DNA of 64,000 nucleotides from a virus. The stretch covers positions 1,023 to 65,022 of the IMG/VR virus record IMGVR_UViG_3300020202_000074; one strand, 5' to 3'. Position 1 is the first letter of the stretch. Each line of letters opens with the position of its first letter. The translations under genes and the position numbers were made by a program. Positions 8,263 through 31,551 of this stretch are shown here, one piece after another. The notes beneath the pieces were generated by a model, which saw nothing but the letters and a program-made list of their open reading frames with translations, was not told the origin of the DNA and made no database searches.

Positions 8263-8374
8263 GCCAACGTAGCTCAAGAAGGTAGTACCTGGCCCGGTCG
8301 CTCCGGTCAGCGAATCCCCTGGAAGAGCGTCGGACAATAATCCGGTGATGGAGGTTCGAGTCCTCCCGTTGGCT
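8263..8374 (+). ncRNA. tRNA-like element: 49-nt D loop, 6-nt anticodon loop
   Basis: GCCAACG/CGTTGGC acceptor, GCTC/GAGC D stem, GGAGG-TTCGAGT-CCTCC T arm, loop CAATAA. Confidence 0.8.
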
Positions 8375-11047: not shown

Positions 11048-11151
11048 GCCGGAGTAGCTCAGTGAAGGAGCAACGATTGATCCCCGTTGTGCCTTCCGGT
11101 AGAGCGTCGGAAGAACTCCGAAGGTCGCAGGTTCGAGTCCTGCCTCCGGCA
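11048..11151 (+). ncRNA. tRNA-like element: 34-nt hairpin in D loop, 5-nt anticodon loop
   Basis: GCCGGAG/CTCCGGC-A, GCTC/GAGC, TCGGA-AGAAC-TCCGA, GCAGG-TTCGAGT-CCTGC. Confidence 0.85.
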
Positions 11152-15688: not shown

Positions 15689-15755
15689 GCCGACCACCGG
15701 AAGTCATGCAGGGGCCCATAACCCCAGCGGCGTCGTTCGATTCGACGGGTCGGCA
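15689..15755 (+). ncRNA. tRNA-Met(CAT)-like element lacking a proper D arm, C at position 33
   Basis: GCCGACC/GGTCGGC-A, GGGG-CCCATAA-CCCC, CGTCG-TTCGATT-CGACG; 67 nt. Confidence 0.75.
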
Positions 15756-27072: not shown

Positions 27073-28332
27073 ATGGAACTGCCCGTGCTTGAGCCCCCCA
27101 TCCCTCACGGGAGAGGTAAGGATGCTCGTCTCTTCTTGGAGTTCTTCGGCATCCTTCCCCGCGTGCCCCATCTCCGCGCGTCGGACTGGGACCTCGCCGG
27201 CGACCCCTTCATGTACTACCTCACGCGCCGGTTGTCTCTGACGACTGCCCTTAGCACCTCGAAGGCCCTGGTCGGCGGCACCTGGTTCCACAAGGTCATG
27301 GAGAACTCCTTGATGGAGGGATGCTCTGGTGGTGGGATCTCCACTCTCTGGGGCATCCGCGTCGCCGAACTACGCGAGACGTGCGCCCGTCTCCACATCA
27401 TGGGAGAGGCTGTTGAGAAGGTGATTGCCGAGGAGAAGCGACGCTACGAGATGGCCCGTGTGTGGTGGCAAGCGTGCATGGACGTCCACATCTCTGATTC
27501 CATCGGCACGCTCTACAACTTCCTGACCCAGCCCCACTTGAGGATCCTCGCGACGGAGCTCCACCTACGTGGCACGTTCAAGGGTCGTCACCCCACCCAG
27601 CTCAAGAAGATCGACTACACGGGTGCCGCCCAGATCGACCTGCTGCTCTACCACACCGGCATCAACGTCCTCTACCCGGTGGACTTCAAGACCTGCGACA
27701 TGGTGCCCAAGGTCCGCCTCGCCATCTGCCCGCAGGAGATGCAGACCCACCACTACCCCGAAATCGTGAACCAGAACCTCCCGAAGCTCATCCGAGAGTA
27801 CGGTCTCGACAAGAAGACCACGGTCGCCGGGATGATCCACGTCGCGGTGCAGAAGCCCTCCATTGAGTTCGGCCGCAACGACCGCCTCTTCACCTCGACG
27901 GAGCGGACGATCACCCGTGGCCCTCGCAAGGGCCAGGTCGTCATCGACAAGGAGTATTACGGCGAACCCGACTTCAAACTCTACCTTGAACGGTGCCGCC
28001 AGTGGTACCAGGGCGAGGGCGACTACTCCCACGAAGCCCCCAAGCGTCAGGGCAGCAATGCCCCGGTGAACATCTCCTTCATGGATGCCAAGTGGATATC
28101 CGCACCCGAGCAGCGGGCCGCCTACCGCGAGAGGCTGGAGACCCTGATGCACCTCAGCAGGCGACCGCCGACGCCCGAGCGATTCCCCCAGCGCGGGGAC
28201 CACCTTATCCAGTACGGAAAAGAGAGCCCGTGGCTCCCCTTCTACGTGTGCCCGGTCAGTGATTGGCCTACGATCATGGCTCAGAAGGGCATCGTGATGA
28301 ACCCCCGTGACCACGACGAGCCCTACGCATAA
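27073..28332 (+). CDS. PD-(D/E)XK exonuclease (RecB/Cas4-like)
   Basis: QIDLLL..VDFKT..QTHHY. Confidence 0.75.
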   Translation: MELPVLEPPIPHGRGKDARLFLEFFGILPRVPHLRASDWDLAGDPFMYYLTRRLSLTTALSTSKALVGGTWFHKVMENSLMEGCSGGGISTLWGIRVAELRETCARLHIMGEAVEKVIAEEKRRYEMARVWWQACMDVHISDSIGTLYNFLTQPHLRILATELHLRGTFKGRHPTQLKKIDYTGAAQIDLLLYHTGINVLYPVDFKTCDMVPKVRLAICPQEMQTHHYPEIVNQNLPKLIREYGLDKKTTVAGMIHVAVQKPSIEFGRNDRLFTSTERTITRGPRKGQVVIDKEYYGEPDFKLYLERCRQWYQGEGDYSHEAPKRQGSNAPVNISFMDAKWISAPEQRAAYRERLETLMHLSRRPPTPERFPQRGDHLIQYGKESPWLPFYVCPVSDWPTIMAQKGIVMNPRDHDEPYA

Positions 28333-28409
28333 AGGAAAGTGGTCCGTCGCGTCTCACGCTCTCTCTGCGTTCGCGTGAGCCCCTCCGGCCCCCACCACAG
28401 GAACCACAC

Positions 28410-28964
28410 ATGGACCCCGACACCTCTCTCGGACAACCACCCATCGTCGCTACCCCCCAAGCACCCCCGCCCACAAAGAAGAAGACCTCCTCGAAGTCGA
28501 AATCAAAGACGAAGTCCCCCACCAAGGAAGTCGGCTTCTACGTTCCCCGAACTCTGTACGAGTCCTTTCTCAACGAGGTGGTGCTGCCCATGATCCAACA
28601 GATCATGCTGGAGGCTCGGCCGCCGATCGGCTCGATGAAGCACCTGCACGAGGCCTTCTGCGCGGAGGCGAAGTGCCAGATCTCCTTCACCATGTTTCGT
28701 GAATGGCTCACCACGTTGAAGGTGGAGACCGAGACCACCATCCACCTGAAAGTGCCTGGCATCGTGGACGGCCCCGGCACCCCGCATCTCGCGGCATCAA
28801 TGCCGCTGCCGAGATCGTTGCAGCCCCCGACCATGGGGGCGATGATGGGCGCCGACAACTCCCAAGAGTTCCACGACTTCGAGAACCAGCCTCCGATGGC
28901 CGCTCCCGCCGGACCCCTTGGGGACCCCAAGTTCGGCGGCATCAACACCTCCTTTGAAGGATGA
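28410..28964 (+). CDS. hypothetical protein
   Basis: SD AGGA; ATGA coupling downstream. Confidence 0.6.
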   Translation: MDPDTSLGQPPIVATPQAPPPTKKKTSSKSKSKTKSPTKEVGFYVPRTLYESFLNEVVLPMIQQIMLEARPPIGSMKHLHEAFCAEAKCQISFTMFREWLTTLKVETETTIHLKVPGIVDGPGTPHLAASMPLPRSLQPPTMGAMMGADNSQEFHDFENQPPMAAPAGPLGDPKFGGINTSFEG

Positions 28965-29896
28965 CCATGCCTCCTGCACAGACGCTCGCCGCTGGCACCT
29001 CCGTGACCCAGAAGTACCCAAGCCTGGGGTTCACGGGAATCCAGATGCGATACCCCCTCAACAAGTTGTTCGGGATGATCGTGGGCCGCTTCTCCTCTGG
29101 GAAGTCCACGCTCTTCCAGAGTAACCCCGAAGCCTACATCATCAACAGTGACCTCACCTCGACGGTGGCCGAGCCCCTCCGGGCCACGATCTGGCCGGGC
29201 GTCTCCCCCTCTGGGGAGCCGATCGACGCCGACAGCAAGCCGATGCAACTCACCCATCAGCGGGTCCTCGACAAGCTCAAGCTGCTGGAGGCCCTGTCCA
29301 AGGAGAACAAGCCACGACCCTCGTGCGTCGTCTACGACACGATCACGACAGAAGCGGCCCTGACCAAGGCGTGGATGGTCGAGAACGCCAACTCCCGTCG
29401 ACAGGACAACAAGCCACCCATCACCCGATGGCGGGACCTCCACGGCGAGACCGCGTGGGACGAGCTCTACGAGAACATCCTCTTCACCTGCGCGTGGCTC
29501 CGGGGCCTCGGGTACGGAGTATGGCTCCTCATCCACCTGACCGACGACGTCATCCGGCTCAACGATGCGGAGACCATCGTGAAGCCCAAGCTTTCATTGC
29601 CCGACGGCTTCATGAAGCGAGCCGGCCCCCTTCTCGAAGTGATTGGCCTCGCCACCAAGGAGGTGGAGCAGGAAGTCATCACAAAGAAGGAGGACGTCCT
29701 CAACGACAAGACCGGCGAGAAGCTATACACCAAGGACGTCACCATCACGGTGCCGAAGACCCGGTACTACGTGGACTTTGACAATCCGAAACTCGCCGGT
29801 ATCCTCAAGCCTCGCGCTGGAGCTCGCGGCCGCATCCCTCTGTCCAAGGAGGATCCCTGGGGCGACTTCGAGCGAGCCTACAACTCCTCCAACTAG
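28961..29896 (+). CDS. AAA_24/Sak4-like phage ATPase
   Basis: Walker A GRFSSGKST, Walker B VVYDTIT; between nuclease and SSB-like gene. Confidence 0.75.
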   Translation: MTMPPAQTLAAGTSVTQKYPSLGFTGIQMRYPLNKLFGMIVGRFSSGKSTLFQSNPEAYIINSDLTSTVAEPLRATIWPGVSPSGEPIDADSKPMQLTHQRVLDKLKLLEALSKENKPRPSCVVYDTITTEAALTKAWMVENANSRRQDNKPPITRWRDLHGETAWDELYENILFTCAWLRGLGYGVWLLIHLTDDVIRLNDAETIVKPKLSLPDGFMKRAGPLLEVIGLATKEVEQEVITKKEDVLNDKTGEKLYTKDVTITVPKTRYYVDFDNPKLAGILKPRAGARGRIPLSKEDPWGDFERAYNSSN

Positions 29897-29905
29897 GACC
29901 CAACT

Positions 29906-30154
29906 ATGGCTCTGAAATGGCACCGTACGATGATGGTCCGCGTCGAATATCGACCCCTTCTAGCTGATAGCGACGCAATGATGAAACCGGGTCATACCTA
30001 CAACGTGGTGGCCCACGACGTCGAGGATGCAATCAACAAAGTCAAGAGAGACCTCGCTCGTAGTACCCCGAGTACCAAGTTTGAGCCTTACATCCAAAAG
30101 GTCGAGTATCTTGGCTCCGTCCTCATCGAAGAGACCGAGCCCTCCCCCGAGTAA
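29906..30154 (+). CDS. hypothetical protein
   Basis: SD AGGA. Confidence 0.55.
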   Translation: MALKWHRTMMVRVEYRPLLADSDAMMKPGHTYNVVAHDVEDAINKVKRDLARSTPSTKFEPYIQKVEYLGSVLIEETEPSPE

Positions 30155-30210
30155 CTACGTAGTCCGGACAGGGTGTCCGGTGATCACCTTTCTGAAAGGA
30201 ACCAGCTCTT

Positions 30211-30744
30211 ATGCCAATGACCGACAACGAAACCATTTCACTCTTCCAGGCCCTCAGCGCCGGCATGGAGAACGTCAAGCCCGACCAGGGCGGCGGCGGC
30301 AACTGGCCCGCGAACGGCACCTATGAGTGCATCGTCACCGAGCTCTCCCTCAACGCTGGCGACGACGTCACCTTCGGAGCCAAGGAATCCGGTATGCCGG
30401 GGTTCATCATGCAGTTCAAATACCTTCGACTCAAGGACCCCAACGCCGCAGGCGGCGCGACTCCGGTCAATGGCGAATACTACCGGTTCCCCAAGCCCTC
30501 GGTCGACCTCTCGAAGCTCACCGCTGGCCAGCAGCAGAACCTCGACATCCTGAAGCAGAAGCTCGCGGGATTCATCGTCGCCATCCTTGGACGCAACCCG
30601 TCCAACAACCTCGGCGCCGACATCCTCGCTCTTCAGAAGAAGCTAGCGACCGGCAAGGTTGTCTGCGAGATCCGTTTCAACGAGAAGGAGTCCGGTCAGT
30701 ACACCAACCGGGACAGCTACTGCGTGTCCTGCTTGAGCTCGTGA
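30211..30744 (+). CDS. DUF669-like / ssDNA-binding protein
   Basis: P.NGTYECIV.EL pattern; position after Sak4-like ATPase. Confidence 0.55.
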   Translation: MPMTDNETISLFQALSAGMENVKPDQGGGGNWPANGTYECIVTELSLNAGDDVTFGAKESGMPGFIMQFKYLRLKDPNAAGGATPVNGEYYRFPKPSVDLSKLTAGQQQNLDILKQKLAGFIVAILGRNPSNNLGADILALQKKLATGKVVCEIRFNEKESGQYTNRDSYCVSCLSS

Positions 30745-30758
30745 ACCATGGGCGGCAA

Positions 30759-30834
30759 GGTGGTTATGGCACAATGGCGAGTGCGCCGGAGAGATAGAGA
30801 TCCGGAGGTCCGGGTTCGAGTCCCGGTAGCCACC
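30759..30834 (+). ncRNA. tRNA-His-like body with a 10-nt purine anticodon loop
   Basis: G-1:C73, GTGGTTA/TAGCCAC, GCAC/GTGC, CCGGA-GAGATAGAGA-TCCGG, CCGGG-TTCGAGT-CCCGG. Confidence 0.85.
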
Positions 30835-30844
30835 CCGCCCACCT

Positions 30845-30969
30845 GGGTGAGGACTATGGATAATCAGACGACGGTTGGCAAGGGGCCTAGGCTACCCAAA
30901 CCGTAAAAGTTCCCATAGTCACCTGTAAGGATCCGTCTCCGACCTGCGGTTAGAATCCCGGCTCGCCCA
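30845..30969 (+). ncRNA. tRNA-Tyr-like element with greatly extended D arm and unpaired anticodon stem
   Basis: GGGTGAG/CTCGCCC-A, GACTATGG/CCATAGTC helix, CT-GTA-A, variable arm GTC-TCC-GAC, TTAGAAT loop. Confidence 0.65.
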
Positions 30970-31044
30970 TTTCCCCACCACCAGTTCGTCGCTACCTAAC
31001 CGGGGCGGCGAACCCTTCAACACGTAGCCCGGAGTGACGCATGA

Positions 31045-31551
31045 ATGCCCCGCAAAACTTCTACCCCGTCAGTGAACCTGGGGACCAGCTCCTGTTCCCC
31101 TGGGTCCATCCCGGACTCCTGGTCCTGCTCGGCCCGCTTGCGCCTCAGGCCCGACCGCCGGCTCGCGATCAGCGTAAGCCTCCCGAAGAACGCCATACTT
31201 ATCGACTCTCCGAGTCTCTCGGGTAAGGCCAGCACCTACATCTCGCGGGGCGGTATGGGCCACTATCTTCACCTACGGCCAGGCGACGTCGACGACACCG
31301 CGTGGATGGCCAGCCTTCTTCGGGGGTTCGGAGGTCTATTGAGCAACGTGTCACGAGTAGAGCCCGATGTGCAATACAACGTCCAGCGACGAGACCGTGC
31401 TGATGGGATCTGGACCCGGTTCCAGTGCATCGTCTCCAAGGCGTGGATACGCAGCGCCGGGGTGGTTGCTCCGGGTCACATTACCCCTCGTGCGACGACA
31501 GCAATGATCGACAAGACACAAGATGGCATCTTCGTAACGGTGGCCCTATGA
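31045..31551 (+). CDS. hypothetical protein
   Basis: ORF coupled to next; start uncertain. Confidence 0.5.
   Translation: MPRKTSTPSVNLGTSSCSPGSIPDSWSCSARLRLRPDRRLAISVSLPKNAILIDSPSLSGKASTYISRGGMGHYLHLRPGDVDDTAWMASLLRGFGGLLSNVSRVEPDVQYNVQRRDRADGIWTRFQCIVSKAWIRSAGVVAPGHITPRATTAMIDKTQDGIFVTVAL

Follow-up and report, generated by a model that had tools for sequence, protein, structure and literature searches.

A tRNA-His-derived tRNA-like element without a decoding loop lies between early genes of a soil-type phage

The window analysed here is a 64,000-nt stretch of DNA with a G+C content of 62% that makes up nearly all of a 65,474-bp IMG/VR virus record (IMGVR_UViG_3300020202_000074), a soil-type phage genome rated 100% complete by CheckV. 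Genes are read from the + strand up to ~34 kb and from the - strand between 34 and 62 kb. Positions 27073-30744 hold a recombination module encoding a PD-(D/E)XK exonuclease, an orphan, an AAA_24/Sak4-like protein, a small orphan and a 177-aa protein. On the basis of model-derived comparisons (Atlas feature score 0.96; TM 0.54-0.71 to phage clusters, some with DUF669), this last product is probably a DUF669-type phage single-strand-binding protein; a search for its homologues among 5.8 billion proteins returned only the protein itself, of which three other contigs encode an identical copy. Its gene stops 14 nt before the first nucleotide, G-1, of a tRNA-like element that sits on the coding strand in a 300-nt gap between same-strand early (recombination) genes (Table 1). 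The gene on the far side of the gap had no Pfam or PHROG match, was uninformative in the Atlas, and is followed by a DUF6065 gene.

Table 1 The element at 30759-30834, its parts, its neighbours and other tRNA-like elements in the window.
Feature	Position	Strand	Description
tRNA-His-derived, non-decoding tRNA-like RNA gene	30759..30834	+	G-1 to discriminator C73
G-1 and acceptor 5' strand GTGGTTA	30759..30766	+	pairs with 30827-30834
Anticodon arm	30786..30805	+	5-bp stem CCGGA/TCCGG, 10-nt loop GAGATAGAGA
T arm CCGGG TTCGAGT CCCGG, acceptor 3' strand TAGCCAC, C73	30810..30834	+	
3' trailer CCG	30835..30837	+	CCA only partly encoded
Upstream gene, 177 aa	30211..30744	+	probable DUF669-type single-strand DNA-binding protein
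Downstream gene, 168-aa orphan	31045..31551	+	from the ORF list
Neighbouring degenerate tRNA-like element	30845..30969	+	10 nt downstream of 30834; relaxed scan
Sister tRNA-like RNA	11048..11151	+	37-nt D-loop insertion (hairpin), 5-nt anticodon loop AGAAC; RF00005 51 bits
Sister tRNA-like element	8263..8374	+	~40-nt D-loop insertion, 6-nt loop CAATAA, discriminator T; partial RF00005 match, 22.3 bits
Sister tRNA-like element, 67 nt	15689..15755	+	without D arm, 7-nt loop CCCATAA (C at 33); strict scan

The surroundings of the element were also surveyed for signals and repeats. We found no promoter- or terminator-like sites on the + strand around it, using consensus sequences of the E. coli type that may miss the signals of the host. 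A strong hairpin, GTTCGTCGC...GCGGCGAAC, lies at 30986-31015, between the tandem tRNA-like elements and the ribosome-binding site of the next gene, and carries no T run. The 12-mer TCCCCACCACCA, which we take to be similar to the 3' end of enterobacterial tRNA-Tyr, occurs 17 times between 539 and 62105 with at most one mismatch, against 0.58 occurrences expected. Its copies fall on both strands in coding and intergenic sequence (for example 30972-30983, just past the neighbouring element), have no strand bias relative to genes and are not tied to the tRNA-like elements. With Pfam and PHROGs, we recognised no toxin-antitoxin genes near the element.

Read directly from the sequence, the element is a complete tRNA body around an abnormal loop. 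The first-pass annotation had described an extra G-1:C73 pair on a tRNA-His-type acceptor, and both are present: G-1 (30759) stands opposite the discriminator C73 (30834), and the acceptor stem (GTGGTTA at 30760-66 with TAGCCAC at 30827-33) has 7 pairs, one of them U5.G68. The D and T arms, which had been called normal, are indeed intact and keep their tertiary nucleotides; U8 is present, position 26 is G, and the D stem GCAC/GTGC encloses an 8-nt D loop, AATGGCGA, that holds A14, G18, G19 and A21. The anticodon stem pairs CCGGA (30786-90) with TCCGG (30801-05). The variable loop, AGGT, is 4 nt long and not 5 nt. All 21 of 21 stem pairs and the tertiary nucleotides are in place in this element, and the anticodon loop alone is abnormal. 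That loop, at 30791-30800, is a purine-rich 10-mer without GTG, as had been noticed from the letters alone; it has no U at the U33 position, and its 10 bases bear no resemblance to TTGTGAT. At the 3' end the element runs into CCG instead of a complete CCA, which would have to be added or repaired.

The tRNA-like structure at 30759-30834 is far beyond chance. The Rfam model RF00005, whose gathering score is 29, matches at 52.7 bits and a window-wide E of 1.8e-8, in an alignment that spans model positions 1-71 and handles the loop as a 10-nt insertion. The cloverleaf has a predicted energy of -31.0 kcal/mol compared with -32.6 kcal/mol for the minimum free energy fold, a gap of 1.6 kcal/mol; a real tRNA-His folded identically likewise did not have the cloverleaf as its minimum. 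We also considered the loop as an antisense guide and rejected this role, as the complement of GAGATAGAGA has no targets in the window above chance.

The ancestry of the body can be read from genes that share its 3' half. We scanned with a pattern made of the T loop and 3' acceptor strand of the element, leaving three T-stem bases free. IMG/VR gave 26 matches, nearly all of them tRNA-His(GTG) genes or bare 3' halves; among the matches listed, the T loop plus TAGCCACC pattern was confined to tRNA-His genes and 3' halves, bar a few non-tRNA fragments from the viral set. Pooling the IMG/VR and species-genome scans yielded at least 121 full-length genes with at least 51 distinct sequences. Among the matches listed, the anticodon was GTG in 51/51 of the distinct full-length genes and position -1 was G in 46/51, which upholds the first reading of the body as that of a tRNA-His. 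With the loop excluded, the element was up to 83% identical to these tRNA-His genes (among the matches listed). Two of the tRNA-His genes closest to the element among the matches listed, from MAGs of Opitutia and Verrucomicrobia, use its CCGGA/TCCGG anticodon stem to close a normal TTGTGAT loop.

Where the stems of the element depart from the His consensus, they do so mostly by paired changes. In the D stem T12:A23 has become A:T, in the anticodon stem A29:T41 has become G:C, and pair 49:65 of the T stem is also a paired change; in the acceptor, C5 has become U with retention of a wobble pair. Like bacterial and phage tRNA-His(GUG), the element forms a cloverleaf with an encoded G-1:C73, a GUGGYUA/UAGCCAC acceptor, the T arm and the tertiary nucleotides of the D arm. 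It differs in having a 10-nt instead of a 7-nt loop, no GUG, no U33, a 4-nt variable loop and a CCG tail. The features that define bacterial tRNA-His are thus divided in this element: an encoded G-1 opposite C73 and a His-type acceptor and T-arm sequence are there, whereas a 7-nt loop with U33 and a GUG anticodon is missing. The element descends from a bacterial-type tRNA-His whose body has stayed intact and whose loop alone has been swapped for unrelated sequence.

The same scan also brought up seven IMG/VR contigs that carry only the 3' half of a tRNA-His, from the anticodon stem to the end, and these halves match three Pirellulales/Planctomycetia genome bins. From their sequence they look like attachment sites that temperate planctomycete phages use in tRNA-His.

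Because its loop is the 10-nt GAGATAGAGA, we do not class the element as a decoding tRNA-His. With 10 nt in place of the anticodon loop, codons cannot be read normally, and the element is unable to decode in the normal way; to our knowledge there is no decoding mode for a 10-nt anticodon loop. Charging is a separate matter. It had been proposed at the outset that HisRS, relying mainly on G-1:C73, could still charge the element, and this accords with published work in which the anticodon is a secondary determinant and HisRS aminoacylates mini- and microhelices bearing G-1:C73 (PMC9976931). Natural G-1 tRNAs with a non-His (Thr) anticodon are likewise charged by E. coli HisRS, with no His inserted in vivo (PMC5389517). 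The element, too, could probably be charged by HisRS: it has retained a complete elbow along with G-1:C73 and, once released, may serve this enzyme as a substrate.

The element has company in the genome. We searched for the top half of a tRNA with a strict scan (a 5-bp T stem with G53:C61 and a T loop of the TTCRANN type, abutting a 7-bp acceptor stem) and found four modules in the window, all on the + strand (8263-8374, 11048-11151, 15689-15755 and 30760-30834), and none on the - strand, compared with 0.05 expected in shuffled sequence. The identical scan of 1.34 Mb of related phage loci gave ~7 spurious matches, or ~0.3 per window. A fifth module, 30845-30969, was recovered only when the T stem was relaxed to 3/5 pairs; its acceptor stem of 7 bp is GGGTGAG/CTCGCCC, its discriminator is A, its T stem is imperfect and its D arm gives way to a long hairpin. 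The Rfam search of the window did not detect it. There is no decoding tRNA in the whole record, where ARAGORN at low threshold gave noise only.

None of these four or five modules has a canonical anticodon loop: three have loops of 5, 6 or 10 nt, and the 7-nt loop of 15689 has C33. The 5- and 6-nt sister loops mean that loop expansion is not a common feature. Nor is histidine a common theme, since the acceptor stems and discriminators of the sister elements (A73 and U73) differ from those of the His element; these other acceptor identities count against His-specific roles. A MAFFT alignment indicated that the five are not recent copies of one another. What they share is the top half of a tRNA and a non-canonical anticodon arm. 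Two of them also carry hairpin insertions of ~37-41 nt at the same site in the D loop (11064-11100 and 8278-8320), both with a GAAGG-like start, and this shared hairpin could be an added arm instead of random damage. In this one genome all the elements keep the half of a tRNA that processing enzymes use and are altered in the decoding half, which is our main argument that they are remodelled instead of rotting.

We searched widely for relatives of the element. Megablast of 29.5-32.5 kb against GenBank phages gave no match, and no close relative of this virus was found among them; IMG/VR locus searches with single proteins (the products of the upstream gene, the Sak4-like gene and the DUF6065 gene) gave no relatives. 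None of 185,579 species genomes contained the exact 3' 22-mer of the element, whose single metagenomic match is a normal tRNA-His(GTG), and a D-arm 18-mer had 0 matches in IMG/VR. A 16-mer covering the loop and its closing pairs had 18 IMG/VR matches, all in unrelated coding sequence and none in a tRNA. With homologues of the element absent from all collections searched, neither conservation nor covariation backs selection.

More distant relatives could be gathered through polA, whose homologues are at most 44% identical. We collected 77 IMG/VR records by polA alignment and searched each whole with RF00005, which matched in 3/77; none of the matches resembled this element, and with 3/77 records matching, the trait is not conserved across the wider group. 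One distant polA relative (G021, IMGVR_UViG_3300033066_000455) has a normal tRNA-His(GTG), a tRNA-Ile and a tRNA-Met. Directly after its tRNA-Ile and tRNA-Met lies an odd module (L110:1501-1581), whose anticodon stem of 7 bp closes a loop of 5 nt; it scores 41 bits on RF00005 and is not called by ARAGORN. A weaker odd module (L112:942-1024) lies ~4.5 kb upstream. A second record (IMGVR_UViG_3300019360_000016) carries a tRNA-like element of 137 nt whose acceptor and T arm are intact and whose anticodon region holds a long insertion (L106:21220-21356), as well as a 69-nt tRNA with a reduced D arm and the loop TTTGTAA (L106:4531-4599). Irregular tRNA-like modules recur sporadically in the wider polA group, at positions that do not match.

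Non-decoding tRNA-like RNAs are already known, among them phage T4 species 1 and 2, t-elements, mascRNA, Y RNA-like RNAs and G-1 tRNA1. The T4 RNAs (rnaC and rnaD) are stable small RNAs encoded with tRNA genes and matured via tRNA processing. They lie in a cluster of working tRNAs, whereas the phage studied here has no working tRNA and its element is clearly His-derived. The Rfam models of Y RNA-like RNAs (YrlA) matched nowhere in the window, even when E values as high as 10 were allowed. Plant mitochondrial t-elements and MALAT1 mascRNA are, like the element, tRNA-like and non-decoding, and lie inside longer transcripts as signals for RNase P and RNase Z (PMC1920247). As with t-elements, an acceptor plus T-arm module is found here on the coding strand in a gap between same-strand genes. 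They are unrelated to the element in sequence (its 21.9 bits on RF01684 fall short of the gathering score, 42.5, which places it outside that family), and the element differs from them in having a complete tRNA body with an aminoacylation identity pair.

Two further systems share the histidine features. The His-accepting tRNA-like structures of plant RNA viruses are viral and non-decoding, and an N-1:N73 pair makes them HisRS substrates (PMC9976931); they are pseudoknotted 3' ends of RNA genomes that serve replication, whereas the element is a DNA-encoded, internal, true cloverleaf. G-1 tRNA1 (Mukai et al. 2017, PMC5389517) resembles the element in combining G-1 with a non-His anticodon region. 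It occurs in rows of irregular tRNAs; the element stands in tandem with the irregular 30845-30969. It is unlike the element in having a 7-nt loop with a GGU anticodon and GUG at 35-37, and in some cases an 8/4 fold; it comes from probable acidobacteria, near toxin-antitoxin genes, whereas the element lies in a phage recombination operon. Our literature search found no description of phage families of anticodon-less tRNA mimics.

The reading we favour, with a probability of about one half, is that the element is a tRNA-His-derived, non-decoding mimic that host tRNA enzymes excise from an early operon transcript. RNase P, RNase Z and the CCA-adding enzyme need, at minimum, the acceptor plus T-arm half of a tRNA as their substrate. 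That all the elements retain this half favours co-transcription and excision by the maturation enzymes of the host. There are precedents for such use of tRNA-like structures in mRNAs: t-elements act as RNase P/Z cleavage signals in plant mitochondrial mRNAs (PMC1920247), and in E. coli RNase P splits the secG mRNA from the leuU tRNA (PMC2241853). The phage record itself encodes neither a CCA-adding enzyme nor HisRS.

For the element we infer transcription, processing, charging and a benefit to the phage, along the following lines. It would be transcribed within the operon RNA together with the early genes, and host RNase P would cleave between -2 and -1, keeping G-1. Completion of the 3' end would fall to an endonuclease or exonuclease together with the CCA-adding enzyme. 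The polycistronic mRNA would thereby be severed at this point and a stable tRNA mimic set free. Once released, the mimic may occupy proteins that read the acceptor and T-arm half only, HisRS included. Processing alone would leave the retention of the full elbow and of G-1:C73 unexplained.

A substantial minority chance falls to a neutral relic, that is, a phage tRNA-His recently disabled by a small replacement in its anticodon loop, functionless and not yet decayed. Such a history would fit the restriction of the element to this genome in every collection searched, the lack of a tRNA match in most polA relatives, and the normal tRNA-His(GTG) of G021, which indicates that tRNA genes come and go in the group. 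One recent loop replacement would, moreover, leave the remaining body intact as well. Against a relic stands the combination of 21 intact stem pairs and tertiary nucleotides with a loop quite unlike TTGTGAT. Four or five tRNA-derived elements in a compact genome, all changed in the decoding half and two sharing the D-loop site of their hairpin insertions, are also unlike the outcome of random decay.

A somewhat unlikely alternative gives the RNA a protective role, in which a processed, CCA-ended mimic titrates a host factor that reads the acceptor end or overall shape and so spares the tRNAs of the host. Candidate targets include tRNA-targeting toxins, as well as immune effectors that act on the 3' tails of tRNAs by cutting or modifying them, and this role may coexist with one in processing. 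Retention of the top half and loss of the anticodon would yield an RNA unable to disturb decoding, and the position among early genes, with many orphan genes adjoining, would suit a decoy. Phage defence directed at tRNAs is widespread, and attack on the acceptor end has a precedent in Cas12a3, an enzyme that cuts off CCA tails and also takes mimics of the acceptor stem as substrates (PMC12851939). However, no defence system or partner has been identified, competition would demand a high copy number, and the literature offers no phage example of a non-decoding decoy. A decoy of an anticodon nuclease should, in addition, keep a target-like loop, which that of the element is not.

Unlikely, too, is a reading in which the phage makes the elements as a panel of chargeable or CCA-tailed non-decoding mimics, with the His element loaded through G-1:C73, that act as substrates or sponges for acceptor-end enzymes. 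Such enzymes might be host immune effectors for which the tRNA 3' end or the aminoacyl group is the target to be cut, extended or modified, or else an orphan phage transferase. If this were true, non-decoding aminoacyl-tRNA mimics would be a counter-defence or metabolic tool of phages.

Of the three roles put forward at the outset (a His/HisRS sink, an aminoacyl donor and a nuclease-proof decoy), none gained direct support. We consider it highly improbable that the element is specifically a histidine carrier, donating His to a non-ribosomal reaction, or a sink that ties up HisRS or histidine. Its intact G-1:C73 identity pair would permit either role, given that HisRS charges such helices (PMC9976931) and that G-1 non-His tRNAs are charged and left untranslated (PMC5389517). 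The sister elements bear other identities, however, and a charged RNA that is never consumed makes a poor sink. Among the ~40 phage proteins, most of them orphans, Pfam and PHROGs recognised no tRNA-related domain or transferase, which leaves a carrier with no aminoacyl-transferase, HisRS or tRNA enzyme recognised in the phage.

There is scarcely any room for an unusual decoder, either a frameshift suppressor with an expanded loop or a tRNA with anticodon AGA after loss of three loop bases. Its appeal comes from ARAGORN, which labels 30759-30834 'tRNA-???' with a forced 4-base anticodon, ATAG, and in intron mode (-i) reports tRNA(AGA) with an 'intron' of 3 nt; this would leave ATAGAGA, the final 7 bases of the loop, with U at the 33 position and a purine at 37. 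The natural frameshift suppressors known have anticodon loops of 8 nt, and an expanded loop that presents an anticodon has 8 or rarely 9 nt, but the loop here has 10, too long for any known mode. We know of no 3-nt tRNA introns in bacteria, and the 5- and 6-nt loops of the sisters show that expansion is not common to the elements.

An attP site derived from a host tRNA-His gene would be in keeping with the many IMG/VR contigs that hold tRNA-His 3' halves typical of att sites, but we reject it as largely refuted, because the element is a full-length cloverleaf with both halves and not a 3' half, the record has no match to a tyrosine integrase (PF00589) or serine recombinase (PF00239), that is, no integrase or resolvase, and its 22-mer is missing from all 185,579 species genomes.

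The usual explanations for phage tRNA genes are codon supply or the replacement of tRNAs destroyed by host defences. Here, a phage without a decoding tRNA keeps several tRNA-shaped RNAs, one of them with a complete histidine identity set, which links it to G-1 tRNAs that are charged yet untranslated, of which a single case has been published (PMC5389517). If these RNAs are made and matured, phages would exploit the non-decoding side of tRNA biology too (RNase P and RNase Z, CCA addition, synthetases and acceptor-end enzymes), possibly as a means of shaping the mRNAs of their own operons or of interfering with host factors.
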